This document shows, in pieces, positions 14,240 through 47,251 of a DNA stretch of 64,000 nucleotides. This DNA is from Oscillospiraceae bacterium. Lineage in GTDB: Bacteria > Bacillota > Clostridia > UBA1381 > UBA9506. Location of the stretch: assembly GCA_015069045.1 (NCBI GenBank), contig SVJJ01000003.1, positions 44,802 to 108,801 of the forward strand, in the 5' to 3' direction. The position numbers and the translations under genes are program-made. Position 1 is the first letter of the stretch. Every line of letters starts with the position of its first letter. The notes beneath the pieces were generated by a model, which had not been told where the DNA came from, did not search any database, and saw only the letters and a program-made list of their open reading frames with translations.

Positions 14240-14336
14240 CACACAAATAAATATCGGGGAGCCAATAGGCTGAGAGGAAACTTTGTTTCGACCCGCAACC
14301 TGATTTGGGTAATGCCAACGTAGGGAATATTTCATG
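14240..14336 (+). promoter_or_regulatory. TPP (THI-box) riboswitch aptamer
   Basis: CGGGGAGCC...GGCUGAGAGG...ACCCGCAACCUGAUUUGGGUAAUGCCAACGUAGGGAA matches the conserved THI-box cores (CUGAGA, ACCUGAU, UAAUGCC, GUAGGGAA). It lies directly upstream of thiT. Confidence 0.9.
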
Positions 14337-14346
14337 ATTGCTTTGC

Positions 14347-39869: not shown

Positions 39870-41012
39870 TTACAGGTAAACTTTAATTAACCTAAACACC
39901 TGCTGTGCAGTATCTCTTAGATTTTTATATGCAGTATCATAAACCATTGCTTCTTGCAACGAACAAGGAGACCTTAAAATCGGGAAAAAGGCGTCAATAC
40001 CGTGTTCATTGCAAATTACAGCATCATCTGTCACACAACCTGAAAAAGCAACGACCAACTTATGATATTTTTTTGCAAGCTTTGCAACACCAACGGGCGC
40101 TTTACCCATATATGACTGTCCATCCAACCTTCCTTCACCGGTAACAACAACATCAGCATCTTTTATGTGATTTTCTAATTCGGTTTCTTTAATCACTATG
40201 TCAATACCAGATGCAAGCGTTGCATGCAAATATGATAAAAACGCAAAACCTAATCCCCCTGCAGCACCTGTGCCCGGGGTATTCGCATCAGATTCAGGAA
40301 AAACCTTTTTTGTCAGCTTAGCATAGTTACCTAGCCAAACATCCATATCCTCTATCATCGATGGAGTCGCACCCTTTTGCGGTCCGTAAATTGCACTGCA
40401 GCCATTTTCTCCACACAGTGTATTATTCACATCACAGGCTACACAGAAGGTACATTCGTTAAGTTGTTCAGCTGCTTTATTTGTGCGAATTTCCACAATT
40501 TCTTTTAACCCTTTTGCTCCAAATGTCACCTGATTGCCTTGGTCATCCAAAAACTCAAATCCTAATGCCTGAAGCATACCTATGCCGCCATCATTGGTTG
40601 CACTGCCACCTATTCCCACAACAAACTTACGACACCCCTTTGAAATAGCATCTAAAATCAGTTCACCCACACCGAAGGTTGTTGTGTTCAAGGGATTTCT
40701 GTCCTTTTCATCTATAAGCGTAATGCCTGCAGCTGCTGACATTTCTATAATCGCCGTTTTTGTATGGGGAACGATTCCGTAATGGCTCTTTATCAAATTT
40801 CCTATGGGATCATGAACAACAACCTCAACCATTTCACCGCCTGCACCCGCAATAATAGCGTCAACGGTACCTTCACCTCCATCAGCAATTGGGGATATAA
40901 CGACCTCTGCATCTTTATATACTTCATTGGCAGCTTCCTTTATTGCCTTTCCTGCCTCAAAAGTAGAAAGGCTTCCTTTGAACGAATCAATAGCAACTAC
41001 AATTTTCTTCAT
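39870..41012 (-). CDS. glxK: Glycerate kinase
   Basis: KIVVAIDSFKGSLS...PIADGGEGTVD...GIGGSATNDGGIGMLQALG...TGEGRLDGQS is the GlxK/GarK family pattern. Confidence 0.85.
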   Translation of the reverse strand: MKKIVVAIDSFKGSLSTFEAGKAIKEAANEVYKDAEVVISPIADGGEGTVDAIIAGAGGEMVEVVVHDPIGNLIKSHYGIVPHTKTAIIEMSAAAGITLIDEKDRNPLNTTTFGVGELILDAISKGCRKFVVGIGGSATNDGGIGMLQALGFEFLDDQGNQVTFGAKGLKEIVEIRTNKAAEQLNECTFCVACDVNNTLCGENGCSAIYGPQKGATPSMIEDMDVWLGNYAKLTKKVFPESDANTPGTGAAGGLGFAFLSYLHATLASGIDIVIKETELENHIKDADVVVTGEGRLDGQSYMGKAPVGVAKLAKKYHKLVVAFSGCVTDDAVICNEHGIDAFFPILRSPCSLQEAMVYDTAYKNLRDTAQQVFRLIKVYL

Positions 41013-41025
41013 TGAATTATCTCCT

Positions 41026-41041
41026 TTCGCAAAATTCGACA
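41026..41041 (-). promoter_or_regulatory. Degenerate pair of Spo0A-box-like heptamers next to the glxK RBS
   Basis: The minus strand reads TGTCGAAttTTGCGAAAGGAG. One box is perfect and one matches 5/7. The period is 9 nt, which is weaker than in the other copies. Confidence 0.3.
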
Positions 41042-41068
41042 AAGTTCGTGTCAAGACCAGCCGAAAAA

Positions 41069-42505
41069 TTATGCATTAACCGAATAGTCTTTTTTAAATC
41101 CATGCGCTCCAAAAATTTGCCAATCACCCACACCAAGTCTTTGCATAATTGCTTTTCGTTCTTCCATACATAACGCAGGGGCAGTATCAACAGATGTCAT
41201 AAGTATAGGAGCGTACTGATTGTATTCTGCCTGCTGCGGTGTTAGTCCGTGAGTGTTTATGTAAATATCTCCCGTAATTGCAATATGATTCTGATAGTCG
41301 ATAAGAACAATTTCACCAGGAAGATGACCACCCTTACCCTCATACACTTCAAAGTGTAATTCCCCAAAATTATAAAACCCAATTTGAGTAAGGGGTTCTG
41401 TGGGATTTTCTACATCTTTCCACAAAACTGTAATTTTTTCAGGATTTGTGCATTTATATGAAGTGAGTAATTTACAAATACTGATATAAGGTCTATGCAG
41501 TGGGTTTTCCTCTCGATAACCATTTTCCTCACTATACTCATTTTTCAAACACAATGCAGTTTTATGACTTGAAATAATCTCGTCAAATATTGGCAAGAGT
41601 CCACAGTGATCAACATCAGCATGTGTTATAAGTATAGTCTTTTTAATTTCGTCATAATCCGGAATAATTCTTCTGAAGATATTTTTCATTTCTTCTTTAT
41701 AACAAGCATATCCACTATCTATAAACAGAATATTACCGTTACTTTTTATAATAATGGTATTACTTCCGCAAGGCGGTTCTACCAAGATTATTTCTGTATT
41801 TTCAGTAATTTTATGTGTGCTTATGCGTGGCGAAAAGTTCTCACCTTTAGAAGCACCGAGCAACTCAGCAAATTTGCTAATGCTATCAAATGTTCGGTAT
41901 GGAGACAACCCTTGTTCATCCAAGGTCTGCATTGCAAGGTTTACATTAACCAAAAGCCCCTTACTCACGTCAGGAGTCAGCCCCATGGTTTGCGACAACC
42001 CCATAACGTATGTATTATAAAAAATACTGTTATCATATACCTTTTCAGAACTGTTATAATCTATGACACGAACTTTGCATAATTTTTCCGCTTCAATTAA
42101 AAATTCAGATATTTTTTCTGAATCATCAACGTACAATCCCATTTTAAAATACTGATAATCTGTTCCGTTTTCCTGCGAACTTATATATGATATATTAAAG
42201 TTGAATTCGTCAATAAGTGTCAAAACATCCATAACACTTCCAGGAACATCCTTTAGGCAAAATTCAAGTAAAACAATGCTTGTTTGTGCATTGGTAGTCT
42301 GAAGATAACCTATCTTCTCCAGTTCTGCATCTGCTTTTCTCAGTTGTTCCTCTGTTCCCTCTGCATCAATAAACAAAGTATGCGAATCAACTGCCTTATT
42401 GTAACTTACGCGGGTGATGTTAATTCCCAATACCGAAAAACATTTACTTGCCTTTAAAAAAGCACCAATACGATTTGGCATTGATGTCACATATGTTTTT
42501 CTCAT
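41069..42505 (-). CDS. ACT-domain / MBL-fold metallo-hydrolase fusion protein
   Basis: The N-terminal ~170 aa contain two ACT-like units (MPNRIGAFLKASKCF..., KDVPGSVMDVLTLIDEF...). The C-terminal half carries ILITHADVDHCG, an HxDxDH variant of the MBL motif HxHxDH. The ATG at 42505 was chosen. Confidence 0.65.
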   Translation of the reverse strand: MRKTYVTSMPNRIGAFLKASKCFSVLGINITRVSYNKAVDSHTLFIDAEGTEEQLRKADAELEKIGYLQTTNAQTSIVLLEFCLKDVPGSVMDVLTLIDEFNFNISYISSQENGTDYQYFKMGLYVDDSEKISEFLIEAEKLCKVRVIDYNSSEKVYDNSIFYNTYVMGLSQTMGLTPDVSKGLLVNVNLAMQTLDEQGLSPYRTFDSISKFAELLGASKGENFSPRISTHKITENTEIILVEPPCGSNTIIIKSNGNILFIDSGYACYKEEMKNIFRRIIPDYDEIKKTILITHADVDHCGLLPIFDEIISSHKTALCLKNEYSEENGYREENPLHRPYISICKLLTSYKCTNPEKITVLWKDVENPTEPLTQIGFYNFGELHFEVYEGKGGHLPGEIVLIDYQNHIAITGDIYINTHGLTPQQAEYNQYAPILMTSVDTAPALCMEERKAIMQRLGVGDWQIFGAHGFKKDYSVNA

Positions 42506-42517
42506 AAAATTCCCCTT

Positions 42518-42534
42518 TTCGACATAATTCGGCA
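42518..42534 (-). promoter_or_regulatory. Tandem Spo0A-box-like heptamers (TGCCGAA-N3-TGTCGAA) next to the RBS of the ACT-MBL gene
   Basis: The minus strand reads TGCCGAAttaTGTCGAAAAGGGG. Both heptamers fit TGNCGAA and repeat with a 10-nt period. Confidence 0.5.
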
Positions 42535-42544
42535 AAATATCCGT

Positions 42545-42570
42545 AAAATTAGTGCACAATTTAGATGCCA
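42545..42570. repeat. Direct repeat copy R1 (TAAAATTAGTGCACAATTTAGATGCC)
   Basis: 25/26 identical to 46971-46996. Its core is related (15/19) to the ACTGTATAATCTGGATGCC core of the leader modules. It overlaps the stop codon of the four-helix-bundle gene. Confidence 0.8.
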
Positions 42571-42920
42571 CTATTATCTTGATTTTTCTTTGCGGTTGTA
42601 ATTGATGATATTAGCTTTCTGCGGATTGTTCCACACTTGTTGTTCAAATTATCATATGTCATCTTATCTATTGCATTTACTTTAAACAAAATTTCTAACC
42701 AATATTCTGTTTCGAAACACTCTTTGAGGGCAATTTCAAGTTTATGTATAAAATCCGCCCTGCTCTGTGCATGCTTTGCTTCATGTGAATTTGCACCTAT
42801 TGACGAGCAAGACCTCAAAAGTTGGTTTGTAAATACCGCTCTCCCCTTTATGTTATCACATGTTGCTGTTGTTTCAACGGTCAATTCAACTGCCAATTCC
42901 TTAATAGTCTTATCGTTCAT
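42561..42920 (-). CDS. Four-helix-bundle protein (23S rRNA intervening-sequence protein / Avd-like family)
   Basis: About 119 aa. LLRSCSSIGANSHEA....SRADFIHKLEIALKECFETEYWLEIL is the family signature. Confidence 0.8.
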   Translation of the reverse strand: MNDKTIKELAVELTVETTATCDNIKGRAVFTNQLLRSCSSIGANSHEAKHAQSRADFIHKLEIALKECFETEYWLEILFKVNAIDKMTYDNLNNKCGTIRRKLISSITTAKKNQDNSGI

Positions 42921-42935
42921 AGTAACCTCTTTCCA

Positions 42936-43116
42936 GCGATATACTCACTTCGTTCGTGCGATATATTTTCACTATGTTCAAATGCGATATAACCTCATTT
43001 CATTCGGTTGCGATATGATATAAATTCCTTTTCTCGTCCCGAAGGGACATATCGCACCTTTAGGTATATCGCTTCCGCAAGGATATATCGCAAATTCCGT
43101 CAGGAATTTATATCGC
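42936..43116. repeat. Convergent 4+4 array of the heptamer GCGATAT / ATATCGC with hairpin spacers
   Basis: GCGATAT occurs at 42936, 42958, 42984 and 43010. ATATCGC occurs at 43049, 43066, 43085 and 43110. The right-half spacers are hairpins, for example 43036-43048, 43092-43109 (7 bp) and 43117-43139 (10 bp). Confidence 0.85.
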
Positions 43117-43142
43117 TGATTTCATCTTCGATGAAATCATTA

Positions 43143-43169
43143 TATAAAGACTGTATAATCTAGATGCCA
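43143..43169. repeat. Leader-module copy D (core only)
   Basis: TATAAAGACTGTATAATCTAGATGCCA differs at one position from the 27-mer at 43740-43766 and 44139-44165. In this copy the Spo0A-box part is replaced by the GCGATAT array. Confidence 0.85.
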
Positions 43170-43210
43170 ATGTTTTTCATTTGTAATCACATCAAGTCAG
43201 AGCTAAAAAA

Positions 43211-43702
43211 TTATCTATCTTTCAGATAACTCTTTATTTCTTCAGAAGAAACTTTTACAAAATTATTTTTTAATTCTTCATTAGCAAAATGTATTTCTAA
43301 AAATTCTATATCCCTTATTTCTTCACCATTTCGATAAACTGTTATGGCTCCATTGCCGGTTGTACCTCTCCCAGCCGGATATGTACGAACATATAAAAAT
43401 TCCTTGTTAAACTGCAAATCCCTTCCGTCTGGACACCACAAATATGTTTGTTTCTCACTATATATACCGTTACAAATAACAATTGTATATTCGTTTCCAT
43501 CATTAAATGCAATATCTATCAATGGATAATCCAATTGCCCAATTGCTTCATCAATAGGAGTATCATCAAGTATCTCAATTTCTTTTTCTAATTTAAATTC
43601 GTATTCTCTTTTTGCATTCTCAAATCCCGTATGATAAAAAATACCACTCGCGACAACAGTACAAAACACACATAAAACTATTAGGATTATAATTTTTTTC
43701 AT
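43211..43702 (-). CDS. Hypothetical signal-anchored / secreted protein (163 aa)
   Basis: N-terminal hydrophobic segment MKKIIILIVLCVFCTVVASG. AGGAAG RBS. Very AT-rich. No family recognised. Confidence 0.6.
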   Translation of the reverse strand: MKKIIILIVLCVFCTVVASGIFYHTGFENAKREYEFKLEKEIEILDDTPIDEAIGQLDYPLIDIAFNDGNEYTIVICNGIYSEKQTYLWCPDGRDLQFNKEFLYVRTYPAGRGTTGNGAITVYRNGEEIRDIEFLEIHFANEELKNNFVKVSSEEIKSYLKDR

Positions 43703-43709
43703 TTAAGCA

Positions 43710-43768
43710 CTTCCTTTCGACAGCATTCGACAATCTTTATATAAAGACTGTATAATCTGGATGCCAAT
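43710..43768. promoter_or_regulatory. Leader-module copy A: RBS, tandem Spo0A boxes, palindrome, promoter-like core
   Basis: The minus strand reads TTGGCA-N18-TATATA, then TGTCGAAtgcTGTCGAA (43716-43732), then AGGAAG. The plus strand reads TCGACA-N18-TATAAT (43727-43756). The palindrome TCTTTATATAAAGA lies at 43734-43747. Confidence 0.6.
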
Positions 43769-43812
43769 CTTATTAGCATCAGGTTAGTGTCAAGTTAGAA
43801 CAAAAATTGTCA

Positions 43813-44100
43813 TCAATATTTCATAACAAAATTTTCATAAAACTCGTACTCTTCGTCGTCAGTTAAGTCACTGTCAATAAACTCTTGTAATTCCTCTTTC
43901 ATTTTTTCATATACCTCATTACAATCATCAGGACCACAAAACGCAGTATGAACCATTGCCCCATAAACTCCACAAGTGATTGCATAATATTTAGGACATT
44001 TTTCCAGAGTTATTCTACAAGATTCCATATACTCTTCATCCTTAATAACAATGCCATTCTCACTTCCGATTGCGACATTCACATATAAATCTTTCCACAT
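43813..44100 (-). CDS. Hypothetical small acidic cytoplasmic protein (95 aa)
   Basis: GGAAGGAG RBS. Acidic C-terminus (DSDLTDDEEYEFYENF). The look is immunity-protein-like, but no family was recognised. Confidence 0.55.
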   Translation of the reverse strand: MWKDLYVNVAIGSENGIVIKDEEYMESCRITLEKCPKYYAITCGVYGAMVHTAFCGPDDCNEVYEKMKEELQEFIDSDLTDDEEYEFYENFVMKY

Positions 44101-44110
44101 TGTAGTTTAC

Positions 44111-44166
44111 TCCTTCCGACAAAATTCGACATCCTTACTATAAAGACTGTATAATCTGGATGCCAT
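44111..44166. promoter_or_regulatory. Leader-module copy B
   Basis: The minus strand reads TGTCGAAtttTGTCGGA (44115-44131) next to the RBS. The 27-mer at 44139-44165 is identical to copy A, and identity to copy A is 37/41 from box 2 outwards. Confidence 0.6.
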
Positions 44167-44222
44167 TGTTTTTTATTGGCGTTAATATTAAGTATGGACT
44201 AAAAAAACAATTAGTTAGTTAG

Positions 44223-44759
44223 TTACTTACTTTCTTTTTTAAGTTTCACAAATTCAATAATTTGTATGATAAATAATACTATATGTGCTGTTCCTGCAAT
44301 TCCTGATACTATCCAAGCCACATCTGTAAAAACCTCATTACGAACTAAATTAAACAAACCATATGTAGGGCCTATATCACCACCATCTGGCAACAAAACC
44401 CAGAAAATCAAATATGTAGCAATAAAAAGATAATTTGTTATCCTTAATCCCGGAGAATCAACAAATAATTTTGATGCATATAAATTTGTCAACAAAAACA
44501 ATATTGGATGTATAATAGGTATTAACATAATTATCATACAAAACCTAATCCAGCCTATATTAAGCACCAACGATAGAGTAGCAATAACAATGCAAATTAC
44601 AGATAGAAGTAATGGTTTGTTTTTTGTTAGATTATTCTTTTTAAATAATTTAATTAATTTTGCAATTCCCCAGATAATAAGTCCAATAATTGCTATAATT
44701 TGTGCTATTCCAAAAATCGTAGAAAAAATATAATAACCCGTTTTTAATATATTCGTCAT
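44223..44759 (-). CDS. Hypothetical polytopic membrane protein (178 aa, about 5 TM)
   Basis: Alternating hydrophobic stretches and an AAAGGAG RBS. About 20% G+C by hand count of one 60-nt line. Confidence 0.55.
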   Translation of the reverse strand: MTNILKTGYYIFSTIFGIAQIIAIIGLIIWGIAKLIKLFKKNNLTKNKPLLLSVICIVIATLSLVLNIGWIRFCMIIMLIPIIHPILFLLTNLYASKLFVDSPGLRITNYLFIATYLIFWVLLPDGGDIGPTYGLFNLVRNEVFTDVAWIVSGIAGTAHIVLFIIQIIEFVKLKKESK

Positions 44760-44771
44760 ACTCTATCTCCT

Positions 44772-44788
44772 TTCGCCAAATTTCGACA
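44772..44788 (-). promoter_or_regulatory. Leader-module copy C (Spo0A-box pair only)
   Basis: The minus strand reads TGTCGAAattTGGCGAAAGGAG with a 10-nt period. The GATGCC core is absent from this copy. Confidence 0.5.
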
Positions 44789-44833
44789 ATCTTACTATGA
44801 TTTTGTCAAGTTAGGGACAAAAAAATTTATTCT

Positions 44834-45043
44834 TTATACAGCAACTTGTCTTGCTTCAATATACAAATCTATATCGTTGATAATATAGTTTGTTCCGGTG
44901 GTATGCAATGCACCATAACATTCCATAATATATTCACACACATTATATTTTTGAAACAACTGTATAACTTCTTTTCCTTTTAGATTTTTTGCAGTCCTAT
45001 ATATCTCAATGCAAAAAATCAAAAATCTTCCCTCTTTGCTCAT
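44834..45043 (-). CDS. DUF3791-like small protein
   Basis: FLIFCIEIYR...GKEVIQLF.KY.V.EYI..CYGALHTTG..YI..DIDLYI matches my memory of DUF3791 proteins. Confidence 0.6.
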   Translation of the reverse strand: MSKEGRFLIFCIEIYRTAKNLKGKEVIQLFQKYNVCEYIMECYGALHTTGTNYIINDIDLYIEARQVAV

Positions 45044-45076
45044 AATATCCCTACTTTAGTTATCTCTATGATTATT

Positions 45077-45946
45077 CTAGATATTTTCAATTTCACTTTC
45101 TTCAATATCTTTCAATGTAATTCCGTCTTTATTTCTCCACTCTGTTCTACCGTTCGCATTTCTTCCCATGACAATAGCCGCAGCTAAAGATGGGCTGGTA
45201 AAAACATAATCTTTCACAAAAGTTTCACTCACAACTGTACCACTTTCAATTAACTTGTTTCTAAGTTTAATTAGGTATTCTGACATACTAGGCGTAGTAG
45301 ACATCGCAATTTTAGAATTTCTCAATACTGCAAAGCCATCAGATGTAACAAATCCTAATGCTTCTGCACCACGAGCTGCTTTAATATGAAAAATTTCTTT
45401 TTCATCATTTAATCCATCTTCTGCATTTGCTGTAAGAACATCAAAAGATTTATAACCCAATGTATTAACTAACAACCTTGCATTTTCAATAAACTCGTCA
45501 AGCATAGCAACATCGTATTCAGAAATAGAGGGACAGGTTGGTATTGTACTATTTATAACATCTGTTCTATTTGCATCTTTTGCCAATTGATAAAATTTAT
45601 TTTCAAGGAATTTCACATGAGCTTTGTTCAATAAATTGTCTTTACTGATTACTGCAATACAATCATTCCAATACTCTTTATCTTTTAAATGTTGCTTTAA
45701 TCGTGTAACAATTCTTTCTGCCTCACCAATATAAATCGTGTCATTTCCATCCGTGCTCTTACCAAATAAGAAATACACGCCGGTATTATCTGCATCCTCT
45801 CTCTGTGCAAATTCAGAAATATCACTACGAGAAATTTTATATACTCTGCCATTCCAATTTGAAAGTTCACACATAATTCTTCCATTTGGATTTCCCTCAA
45901 ATATGTACATCTGAATTGTTTTATCAAAATTTTTCATATAACTCAT
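45077..45946 (-). CDS. GIY-YIG nuclease-domain protein with a DUF4357-like C-terminus
   Basis: GVYFLFG-N12-IYIGEAERIVTRLKQH (nt 45713-45781). C-terminus FTSPSLAAAIVMGRNANGRTEWRNKDGITL. The ATG overlaps the upstream stop (ATGA at 45943-45946). Confidence 0.7.
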   Translation of the reverse strand: MSYMKNFDKTIQMYIFEGNPNGRIMCELSNWNGRVYKISRSDISEFAQREDADNTGVYFLFGKSTDGNDTIYIGEAERIVTRLKQHLKDKEYWNDCIAVISKDNLLNKAHVKFLENKFYQLAKDANRTDVINSTIPTCPSISEYDVAMLDEFIENARLLVNTLGYKSFDVLTANAEDGLNDEKEIFHIKAARGAEALGFVTSDGFAVLRNSKIAMSTTPSMSEYLIKLRNKLIESGTVVSETFVKDYVFTSPSLAAAIVMGRNANGRTEWRNKDGITLKDIEESEIENI

Positions 45947-46869
45947 TCCCCTTTATGATTCTTTTCGCTTACAGAAAGCACAAAATCCGCCATAGTCATC
46001 GCACTATTAACAAACAAGCGAGCATGATGCTCTGCTATGTTAATTCTTTTTGTACCAACACCATGAGAATCGCTACCTTTATTGCGCATTTCAGAAATTG
46101 CTGTTAGAATCTTTTCTAACCCAGAAAGCAATCCGTTTATTCTCTTGTCGATATCTTTGTTTTGGTGCATATTATATAGTGTTTTTACTTGGTTATATAA
46201 CTTTCCGACATCTCCGCTCTCGGATGGTTGTTCCCCTTTTTTCTCTATTACATAACAAAAAACCTCTTCAAGTAGTGTTCTAGATTTAGTTATTGCGCTA
46301 TCAAAAAAACCATCAGTTACATCCTTCATAGCACGATCCGACAATCCTACTATGTATGATCTATCTATTTTTTTAACGGATGGTGCAACAATTTTTACCG
46401 TCTCTCCTTTTTTATCTATAACAAAACGGCCATCAACAATTACAAGTTCAAAACCACTAAAATACAACACTCCATTTATTTGATCAATTATTGTTGAAAT
46501 AATTCTTTTGTGGGCATAATCAATATCTTTTGGAGTGCATCCTCTAAGTTTATTTGCAAACTGTTCTTTAGAAAACAAAAACGACAACAAGTCAGAAACT
46601 CTATTATTATCAATACAAAACTTCAGCAAATTATCAAGATATTCCCAACGGCTTTTTGCCCCACCACTCCACTTGTAAGCAACCGGCAGTCCAAAATTCG
46701 TTGATATTTCGCATAAATCCGGTCCATTTAAGTATGGAAGAGAAATCTTAATAATATCGTCAATGGATTCAACTTTAAACTCACCGAAATCGGTATCGCC
46801 ATCCAAAATCGCTATTATTGTTTTTGTTCTTAACAACCCAAAATTGTTATCAATTGTTTTCATTATCAA
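45943..46869 (-). CDS. AbiJ-like protein with a C-terminal Abi_C/HEPN domain
   Basis: C-terminal ...ISEMRNKGSDSHGVG...AEHHARLFVNSA contains an Rx6H motif (R262-H269, nt 46063-46086). The N-terminal SLPYLNGPDLCEISTNFG...WSGGAKSRWEYL resembles AbiJ N-terminal domains. Confidence 0.65.
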   Translation of the reverse strand: MIMKTIDNNFGLLRTKTIIAILDGDTDFGEFKVESIDDIIKISLPYLNGPDLCEISTNFGLPVAYKWSGGAKSRWEYLDNLLKFCIDNNRVSDLLSFLFSKEQFANKLRGCTPKDIDYAHKRIISTIIDQINGVLYFSGFELVIVDGRFVIDKKGETVKIVAPSVKKIDRSYIVGLSDRAMKDVTDGFFDSAITKSRTLLEEVFCYVIEKKGEQPSESGDVGKLYNQVKTLYNMHQNKDIDKRINGLLSGLEKILTAISEMRNKGSDSHGVGTKRINIAEHHARLFVNSAMTMADFVLSVSEKNHKGE

Positions 46870-46970: not shown

Positions 46971-46996
46971 TAAAATCAGTGCACAATTTAGATGCC
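46971..46996. repeat. Direct repeat copy R5 (TAAAATCAGTGCACAATTTAGATGCC)
   Basis: 25/26 identical to 42545-42570, about 4.4 kb away in the same orientation. Confidence 0.8.
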
Positions 46997-47125: not shown

Positions 47126-47218
47126 GTATGTGTCAATTATATCATATCCTCTTTCCTTTATCAATAAAAAGAATTTCTATTAACTATATTTATATTTTTT
47201 TGATATACCTCTCCGTAT

Positions 47219-47251
47219 TTGACATTTTTTTCCATCTTGCTGTGTTATAAT
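47219..47251 (+). promoter_or_regulatory. Putative spoIIGA-sigE promoter with an over-long spacer
   Basis: TTGACA (47219-47224), a 21-nt spacer, then TATAAT (47246-47251), 38 nt upstream of the spoIIGA start. TTTGACA resembles an inverted Spo0A box (6/7). Confidence 0.55.

Follow-up and report, generated by a model that had tools for sequence, protein, structure and literature searches.

Predicted tandem Spo0A operators in the linkers of small-gene cassette arrays of uncultured gut Clostridia

The core of the DNA site bound by the master sporulation regulator Spo0A, the 0A box, is TGTCGAA, of which G2, C4 and G5 are contacted by the protein, and a perfect box predicts binding by Spo0A of C. 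difficile (PMC3485338). Two boxes lying 3 bp apart were footprinted as one Spo0A site of 25-30 bp, the variant TGTtGAA is bound and footprinted by Spo0A in phage Nf, and the DNA of phages phi29 and Nf carries consensus and near-consensus boxes, including pairs 3 bp apart, with transcription switched off as phosphorylated Spo0A (Spo0A~P) rises (PMC2731898). In Bacteroidales, the accessory arrays named rAID-1 possess an XerD-family recombinase at the array head, repetitive intergenic sequences and immunity genes (10.1101/471110). Here, a window of 64,000 nt of contig SVJJ01000003.1 (GCA_015069045.1, Oscillospiraceae bacterium; positions 44,802-108,801 of the forward strand) was analysed, in which tandem heptamers of the 0A-box type stand in front of several genes of an accessory island on the minus strand. 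The preferred reading, to which the sequence evidence lends about an even chance, is that these genes are portable cassettes, each of which would carry its own abrB-like operator for Spo0A~P and be shut off at the onset of sporulation.

Exact TGNCGAA-N3-TGNCGAA occurs four times in the window, in every case on the minus strand and inside the island: as TGTCGAAattTGGCGAA at 44772-44788 (then AGGAG, with the ATG of a 178-aa membrane protein gene at 44759), as TGTCGAAtttTGTCGGA at 44115-44131 (then AGGAG; ATG of a 95-aa gene at 44100), as TGTCGAAtgcTGTCGAA at 43716-43732 (then AGGAAG; ATG of a 163-aa gene at 43702) and as TGCCGAAttaTGTCGAA at 42518-42534 (then AAGGGG; ATG of an ACT plus metallo-beta-lactamase-fold (MBL) gene at 42505). 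The period of each pair is exactly 10 nt, the AGGAG/AAGGGG-type ribosome-binding site (RBS) comes next, and the ATG lies 6-10 nt beyond. A fifth, decayed pair, TGTCGAAtttTG-CGAA at 41026-41041 (minus strand), precedes AGGAG and the ATG of a glycerate kinase gene at 41012; its second box is short of one base. The coordinates, strand and period of the four strong pairs and the presence of the weaker one were all given correctly by the original prediction, which had also proposed counting the tandem motif for a background rate. Within the 64-kb window, TGNCGRA-N3-TGNCGRA with at most one mismatch has five matches against 0.72 expected, a number that none of 100 shuffles reaches, and six of the eight perfect TGTCGAA heptamers fall within the 4 kb of the island. 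A 27-mer reported beside two of the pairs has exact copies at 43740-43766 and 44139-44165 and a copy with a single mismatch at 43143-43169, whereas the palindrome ascribed to both of the exact copies is perfect (TCTTTATATAAAGA) only at 43734-43747; the module at 44115 has none, and the copy at 43137-43150 has one mismatch. The third 27-mer copy is not followed by boxes, the next element being a separate 200-nt structured repeat in front of a four-helix-bundle gene.

A feature absent from that prediction is a conserved element directly after each upstream stop codon. Alignment of the six spacers of the window yielded the block TAATTTTTnGTYCTaACTTGACA (element A) directly 3' of each of these stops and, in some spacers, an extra inserted block with the 27-mer. 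The linker runs in the order stop codon, A, zero, one or two B units, a 10-nt -10-like piece (TATATGGATA or TATAGTAAGA), box 1-N3-box 2 (element C), Shine-Dalgarno (SD) sequence, gene-specific spacer and ATG. Element A, with the consensus TTTTT-RG-TYCTAAC-TTGAYA-YGAAC, is represented on the minus strand by tttttttgtccctaacttgacaaaa at 44801-44825 (shortly after the DUF3791 stop, in a short-form linker with 10 nt to box 1), a diverged copy gtttttttagtccatacttaatattaac at 44182-44208 after the 178-aa gene, tttttgttctaacttgacactaac at 43783-43806 after the 95-aa gene, ttttttagctctgacttgatgtgatt at 43185-43210, which starts at the stop of the 163-aa gene, and tttttcggctggtcttgacacgaac at 41044-41068, which starts at the stop of the ACT-MBL gene and is separated by only 2 nt from the decayed boxes. 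In the wider set of loci described below, A is present after 87 of 170 cassette stop codons, its T-run starting 0-2 nt past the stop in 61 of the 87. Measured from the end of A (YGAAC), box 1 comes after 10 nt in 37 of the 48 short linkers, after 49-51 nt in about 70 linkers and after 89-92 nt in four; this distance is quantised, and the inserted blocks are therefore exact 40-nt units present 0, 1 or 2 times.

Three forms of the inserted unit were distinguished, namely B1 (aaaaaGGTTTGCATCTAAACCTTATGcCTCGC), B2 (aaaaaCATTGGCATCyAGATTATACAGTCTT), which contains the 27-mer, and the variant B3 (GCATCTAAATTGTGCAC). The two B2 cores at 44139-44165 and 43740-43766 (minus strand) read aTGGCA-N18-TATAGT and TTGGCA-N18-TATATA, respectively, on the sense strand, and both read TCGACA-N18-TATAAT on the antisense strand, while the B2 unit with one mismatch (43143-43169, minus strand) is followed by element H, the structured repeat mentioned above, with no boxes. 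B3 occurs twice on the minus strand, at 42552-42568, where the four-helix-bundle gene terminates at its TAA, and at 46979-46995, within the leader that precedes Abi_C, the gene at the island head. By inspection of the sequences (TCCTAAC versus ATCTAAAC), A itself resembles a further, diverged copy of this 40-nt repeat unit.

The distribution of the module was determined by scanning one genome per species for TGTCGAANNNTGTCGAAAGGA, which matched at least 119 stretches; about 17 are expected by our own uniform-composition arithmetic. The statements that follow hold among the matches listed. About ten lie in unrelated phyla, all without the module, and nearly all others come from uncultured Clostridia of ruminant and other animal guts, the module hosts being Congzhengia, Aphodoplasma, Ructibacterium, Ornithomonoglobus and metagenome-assembled genomes (MAGs) labelled 'Oscillospiraceae' or 'Clostridia bacterium'. 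The clostridial matches have the full linker upstream and an ATG just downstream. A profile search of the loci (L numbers below) gave 248 box-bearing sites, of which 193, in 84 loci, have A and/or B upstream; the module is thus a clade-wide linker and not, as had been supposed, the feature of one accessory island. In all 49 loci with several modules these lie on one strand, with a median spacing of 573 bp and up to seven modules per 8 kb, and the arrays are placed among ordinary housekeeping genes at differing chromosomal sites. The suggestion that the 27-mer be sought in related genomes was borne out, a 26-mer of B2 being exact in 17 loci from other species. On this sequence evidence, the linker is a clade-specific composite by which small accessory genes of uncultured gut Clostridia are connected in arrays of a single orientation.

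An attempt to follow the module by way of the homologues of the 95-aa protein led no further, as the out-of-clade copies, in Blautia, Lachnospiraceae and other lineages, have no module; the linker is therefore a property of the clade, not of the gene. One in-clade species has the 95-aa gene alone with its own promoter, and then A, B1, B2 and half of element H before malQ. An origin of the module in phages or plasmids was likewise rejected, since the four viral-contig matches all lack A and B and no match was found in PLSDB. In Blautia producta and related contigs (L132-L134), the 95-aa homologue stands in a tight co-directional array of small diverse genes (Macro, ADP-ribosylglycohydrolase, SIMPL, PNPOx, DUF4186, glyoxalase, DUF188, YccF) without Spo0A-box linkers, and in L134 this array directly follows a large serine recombinase. 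In a Ructibacterium MAG (L036), a B2 unit with decayed boxes (TGTTGAAtatTGATTGA) precedes a glycerate kinase gene, and it seems that housekeeping-type genes at the ends of arrays retain eroded linkers, as does the glycerate kinase gene of the window.

Conservation of the boxes was profiled over 118 module copies chosen independently of the search pattern. The consensus bases of box 1 have the frequencies T.95, G.91, T.94, C.89, G.93, A.96 and A.96, and those of box 2 T.91, G.92, T.69, C.68, G.91, A.94 and A.94, so that positions 3 and 4 of box 2 are relaxed, with TGGCGAA, TGACGAA and TGTTGAA as the main variants. The 3-nt spacer is free, and the boxes are conserved above the flanking 10 nt and, in the fixed-register profile, above the GG of the RBS, whose position shifts by one base. 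Judged from the alignment, this distribution over boxes, spacer and flanks is what protein-DNA contacts would produce. That the pairs are mere passengers, copied along with a duplicated intergenic segment and devoid of a function of their own, could be suggested by the neighbouring B2 units of the window, whose identity over 27 nt indicates recent copying or gene conversion. However, such position-specific conservation in diverged copies from many species, the preserved 10-bp phasing and the retention of boxes in short, B1 and B2 contexts alike make this extremely improbable. A comparison of box quality between B-bearing and short modules was uninformative because the best copies are the search seeds.

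As to the protein that would make such contacts, a regulator of direct repeats other than Spo0A, either an OmpR-family response regulator or a clade-specific protein, could be invoked, since box 1 fixes T at position 3, which is free in the TGNCGAA consensus. Direct repeats with a period of 10-11 bp are, moreover, typical of response-regulator sites generally. Against such a regulator, and in favour of the assignment to the 0A box made in the original prediction, stand the match to the exact TGTCGAA core, the head-to-tail arrangement and the 3-bp spacing known for Spo0A (PMC3485338, PMC2731898). The same motif is also found at the regulatory genes themselves in related clostridial MAGs. The identical 21-mer stands upstream of spo0A in two of them, L084 (at about 100 nt; Pfam Spo0A_C, E = 6e-46) and L048, and in a third MAG (L093) it abuts the RBS (AGGAGG) of abrB in the same arrangement as element C; among the non-module matches it further precedes two XRE-type regulators. 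The occurrence at spo0A in two MAGs and at abrB in one indicates that the motif is the canonical Spo0A operator of this class, and a different regulator is accordingly considered very unlikely.

Several further sites of this kind were observed outside the modules. On four viral contigs of 135-163 kb (L125-L128; IMG/VR 3300045988), a terminator is followed by aaaaaTGTCGAATTTTGTCGAAAGGAGG and then by an ATG (MRISY...), so that this phage gene has, beside its RBS, a predicted tandem Spo0A operator of the abrB type, which calls to mind the use of 0A boxes by phi29. In an Oscillospiraceae MAG (L042, minus strand, reverse-complement coordinates of about 2355-2395), a run of four TGTCGAA boxes with a 10-bp period lies directly upstream of the RBS of a gene for a 306-aa 4Fe-4S ferredoxin-domain protein. 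Homologous proteins of 131-135 aa without a Pfam match are encoded in two different MAGs at L085 6715-7139 and L100 3884-4288 (MVDGQKTLKEYCREAKKRMKQGFW... and MSNRNEIKSLAKLAKQRLKSGFW...), the exact tandem operator abutting each RBS, and may be a conserved, uncharacterised target of Spo0A.

The genes behind the modules are short and diverse, the 175 complete open reading frames (ORFs) having a median of 149 aa and falling into 121 clusters. Most of the cassette proteins have no Pfam match, and the others comprise WapI (four members), DUF5412, DUF4279, DUF3916, DKNYY, beta-lactamase, VanY, GDSL lipase, aldo-keto reductase, ion channels, HAD hydrolases and DUF559. Members of one cluster are found behind short, B1 or B2 linkers and with differing neighbours, and cassette coding sequences are often 93-100% identical between species-representative MAGs. 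In 38 homologous cassette pairs, identity rises above background about 10 nt upstream of box 1, stays high from the boxes through the RBS spacer and the ORF to the end of A, and drops to background beyond it. From these boundaries it follows that the unit that is inherited and exchanged as a whole consists of the 10-mer, boxes, SD, ORF and A, with B units and other miniature elements located between the cassette units. The boxes thus travel with the downstream ORF, which upholds the earlier notion that the cassette is the unit.

Of the miniature elements, element H (window 42925-43135, minus strand) has a length of about 200 nt and consists of four units of a hairpin plus G/T-CGATAT (here GCGATAT), followed by four ATATCG (here ATATCGC) units with hairpins. 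It folds into a ladder (minimum free energy -62 kcal/mol, z = -4.4), exists in two sequence variants with compensatory changes in the 7-9-bp rungs and side hairpins, and has no Rfam match. It lies between the A/B units and the gene, which in the window belongs to the 23S_rRNA_IVP family, and was also observed in L014, L025, L044, L053, L056, L069, L073, L095, L116, L117 and L140/L142. Element R is a leader of 230-300 nt (TTTACTTGTGTCAAGTC...TAGTTTGCCGATTT...GCGAGAAAATCCAGTATTCTCGCGGGTTCTAAGG...AGGTCCTATTAT...TCACTGTTC) with an optional 70-nt hairpin insert between GGTYCTTATTAT repeats; it is inserted within element A just before CCTGACTTGACA and gave no Rfam match even at E = 1. It was seen in L038, L060, L063, L067, L078, L081, L103 (two copies), L116 and L122 (two copies), and in part in L090 and L118. 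Genes for DUF559 (endonuclease-like) proteins recur in the arrays of nine loci, including L015, L037, L076, L077 and L092, flanked by GC-rich hairpins (AAAGCCTCCCTTGCCTAAAGGGAGG... and ...CAGCTCCCTTTACACAAGGGAGCC), and ORF-less copies of the flanks occur in L061 and L092, which suggests that the DUF559 unit is a small selfish element with miniature derivatives.

These features could alternatively be explained if the linker, or the junction of A and C, were the recombination site of an integron-like or rAID-like system, the boxes and an inverted TTGACA of A being recombinase-binding arms and the match to 0A boxes secondary. Such a site would account for the small size and high diversity of the cassettes, for a content like that of integron or poly-immunity arrays (WapI, DUF4279, DUF3916, beta-lactamase, VanY), and for identical cassettes in different species and contexts. 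It would also fit the sharp homology boundaries and quantised junction spacing, the placement of the non-coding units B, H and R all between the end of A and the 10-mer, the CTTGACA of A, which is an imperfect inverted copy of the box, and the fact that the stop codons of some ORFs fall inside A, B1 or B2. A linked recombinase was sought, yet the 999 ORFs of 120 aa or more in the fetched loci include no recurrent recombinase family, and none is present among the best 25 of the window's 113 Pfam families. An attC reading was rejected too: TYCTAAC of A resembles R'', but no R''/R' pair (RYYYAAC...GTTRRRY) is formed in the absence of a GTTRRRY partner, and the linkers give no stable hairpin (folding z about 0). 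Moreover, direct repeats would be unusual as crossover cores, about 23 contigs from the species of the window all have the same array, and homologous recombination between conserved blocks can yield the same mosaics, so that a dedicated recombination site is regarded as unlikely. Strain-level cassette polymorphism in that species was also looked for in these contigs, and the one apparent variant (L147) proved to be a contig break.

Based on the linker anatomy, a possible mechanism can be proposed for the preferred reading, that of cassettes under Spo0A~P. The tandem boxes would form a high-affinity operator of the abrB kind for phosphorylated Spo0A. A B unit could provide an A-tract and a -35-like hexamer to the resident -10-like piece, so that transcription would start at about the first bases of box 1 and the boxes would lie at about +1 to +17, where bound Spo0A~P would block initiation from the B promoters. 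In short linkers without B, bound Spo0A~P may instead be a roadblock for polymerases that read through from the gene before. Every cassette would then carry its own switch, being expressed in growing cells and silenced on entry into sporulation wherever it stands in the array, and cassettes could move either by homologous exchange between conserved linkers or by a site-specific enzyme. A more extended and rather doubtful proposal is that sporulating gut Clostridia possess a gene-cassette platform of their own, functionally parallel to integrons and rAID and mechanistically distinct from them, in which each cassette would have a Spo0A operator and RBS at its 5' end and element A at its 3' end, cassettes would be exchanged between species at the junction of A and C, 40-nt promoter cartridges and miniature elements (H, R and the DUF559 unit) would insert at the same junction, and the accessory pool would be tied to the sporulation decision.

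The promoter part of this mechanism was evaluated on both strands. The B unit sets the A-tract and the -35-like hexamer (TTGCAT or TTGGCA) 17-18 nt upstream of the 10-mer, which in this register reads cAATAT, TATAGT or TATATA; in the same register short linkers read CTATAT, with no A at -11. A consensus scan of the sense strand accepted one B2 copy (44166-44137; 9/12), whereas the copy at 43766 fails the scan rules (-35/-10 at 16-18 nt; -10 with A2 and T6). The minus-strand promoter of the original prediction fits the B units in position but not B1 in strength or the short modules at all. The alternative plus-strand promoter, TCGACA-N18-TATAAT (11/12), is real in two of the five modules here, where B2 is followed by boxes, and has no equivalent in B1, the reverse strand of which reads CATAAG; being restricted to B2 modules, it would be at most a subtype feature and not a general function. 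Alternative sigma factors (sigma-H, extracytoplasmic function, sigma-E/F/G/K) were rejected after inspection of the boxes and B units, no register fitting the consensus spacings, as was a sigma-54 reading of TGGCAT-N5-TTATA, the -12 element of which is wrong.

Several points weigh against control by Spo0A~P at a promoter. Of the promoter-like units, the most frequent one, B1, agrees with TTGACA/TATAAT at no more than about 7/12 (our own count, by inspection) and B2 at 9/12 on the sense strand, for which reason the predicted transcription start is weakly founded. About one third of the modules have no B unit, and the short linkers have no promoter, so that the model of a promoter-proximal operator is not directly applicable to them. 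No spo0A gene is present in the 64-kb window or in any module-bearing locus, and the C4 contact base of box 2 is conserved at only 68%. Because GAAAGGAG also reads as an extended SD, part of the conservation of box 2 may be translational, and because the copies are homologous by descent and have been exchanged between genomes, some of the conservation may reflect recent spread rather than selection.

The translational aspect leads to a further alternative, in which the boxes would act in the mRNA, either as a leader that sets translation initiation through the extended SD together with an upstream enhancer or protein-binding repeat, or as a processing site at which polycistronic transcripts are cut. 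Box 2 is indeed fused to the SD with the ATG at a fixed short distance, the arrays have no internal terminators and are probably polycistronic, and, since the short linkers are without a promoter, the boxes there are certainly transcribed. However, box 1 lies outside any SD pairing and is nevertheless the most conserved element, no Rfam match was obtained in the island or in 16 loci, and 21 short linkers fold no better than shuffled sequences (mean z 0.02). The 7+3+7 motif is, in addition, a known DNA operator that also lies about 100 nt from the ATG of spo0A, where a role in the mRNA leader is unlikely. Action in the mRNA is hence distinctly unlikely. An anti-SD hairpin (TCCT...AGGA with TTGACA...TGTCgAA) was rejected, appearing in some minimum-free-energy folds at energies equal to those of shuffles (the same mean z of 0.02) and having no covariation support because the boxes do not vary.

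In the window, the linkers join a co-directional array of six genes (39870-44759, minus strand), in which boxes stand in front of the 178-aa membrane protein gene (44223-44759), the 95-aa gene (43813-44100) and the 163-aa gene (43211-43702), the latter two without a Pfam match, and of the 478-aa ACT-MBL gene (41069-42505), and decayed boxes in front of the 380-aa glycerate kinase gene (39870-41012). The series of boxes is broken by the 119-aa four-helix-bundle gene of the 23S_rRNA_IVP family (42561-42920), which has element H in place of boxes. The head of the island (44834-46869), also on the minus strand, consists of genes without boxes in front, namely Abi_C (45943-46869), GIY-YIG/DUF4357 (45077-45946) and DUF3791 (44834-45043), and the 3' end of DUF3791 with its A element also precedes a different cassette in L035. 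The best sigma-70-like sense promoter found at the island head by the consensus scan is TTGATA-17-TATAAT with TG (47136-47164, minus strand). No terminator-like site was found in any linker of the array, the few sites called by the scan being inside coding sequence. The island is flanked on one side by spoIIGA and a sigma-factor gene, probably sigE, and on the other by a glycosyltransferase gene and then a UMP-kinase-type gene (pyrH); a further sporulation gene, Spore_YunB, is present in L142. Upstream of spoIIGA (47290), TTGACA and TGtTATAAT are separated by 21 nt at 47219-47251 (plus strand), with no perfect 0A box in the region, and this over-long spacer is reminiscent of the spoIIG promoter of B. 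subtilis, which depends on Spo0A and has a spacer of 22 bp. A thiamine pyrophosphate (TPP) riboswitch is present at 14245-14343 (plus strand; Rfam RF00059, 73.7 bits).

The operator itself is already known from abrB, spo0A and phi29, whereas for its use within an exchangeable cassette linker our literature search found no prior description; the original prediction had likewise regarded an accessory island wired to this regulator as undescribed. If the preferred reading is true, a large, mobile share of the accessory genes in an abundant clade of uncultured gut bacteria, with a cargo of immunity-type proteins, membrane proteins, beta-lactamase, VanY and defence genes, would consist of plug-and-play units wired to a master developmental regulator. 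Horizontally acquired genes would thereby have a new route to immediate and uniform regulation, the Spo0A regulon would extend from a fixed gene set to an open-ended cassette pool, and Bacillota would have their own equivalent of the integron and rAID arrays. For metagenomes, a ready probe for such arrays is provided by the 21-mer together with the consensus sequences of A and B, which also define short DNA fragments for direct tests of Spo0A binding.

Compared with known systems, the modules share with phages phi29 and Nf the presence of 0A boxes on non-core DNA, the 3-bp pairs and the TGTtGAA variant. Contrary to those, they are chromosomal, with only the four viral-contig matches noted above, and involve many independent cassettes instead of a few phage promoters and origins. 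The arrays resemble integrons and CALIN elements (PMC4889954) in their co-oriented small and diverse ORFs, mostly promoterless and of unknown function, in the conserved element that separates them and in the occurrence of the same cassette in different arrays and species. They differ in that IntI was found neither in the loci nor among the best 25 of the window's 113 Pfam families, that an attC-like imperfect palindrome with R''/R' cores is missing here, and that the linker, in a Bacillota host, includes the RBS and predicted operator of the downstream gene. With rAID-1 they have in common the gut habitat, long arrays with repetitive intergenic sequences, orphan immunity-type genes (some cassettes here being WapI-like or of other immunity-type families) and signs of horizontal acquisition, whereas no XerD-family recombinase was seen in the fetched loci or among the best 25 of the window's Pfam families, the phylum is another, the repeat carries a Spo0A-type operator and many cassettes encode enzymes or membrane proteins. 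As neither the recombinase nor an attC site was found within this scope, the arrays are assigned neither to integrons nor to rAID-1.

Pneumococcal BOX elements, which have the structure boxA-boxB(n)-boxC, occur at scattered places, fold into strong hairpins and have no set position with respect to stop or start codons. Like the linkers, they are composite intergenic repeats with a 5' module, variable internal units and a 3' module and can influence expression, whereas the linkers start at a stop codon, end at an RBS and have no stable fold. In arrangement the modules resemble abrB, where a head-to-tail pair of TGNCGAA boxes with a 3-bp gap follows the promoter and precedes the RBS. In contrast to abrB, however, the operator of the modules is repeated before hundreds of unrelated accessory genes instead of one regulator gene, and it is embedded in a larger linker with A and B units and inherited within an exchangeable gene unit.

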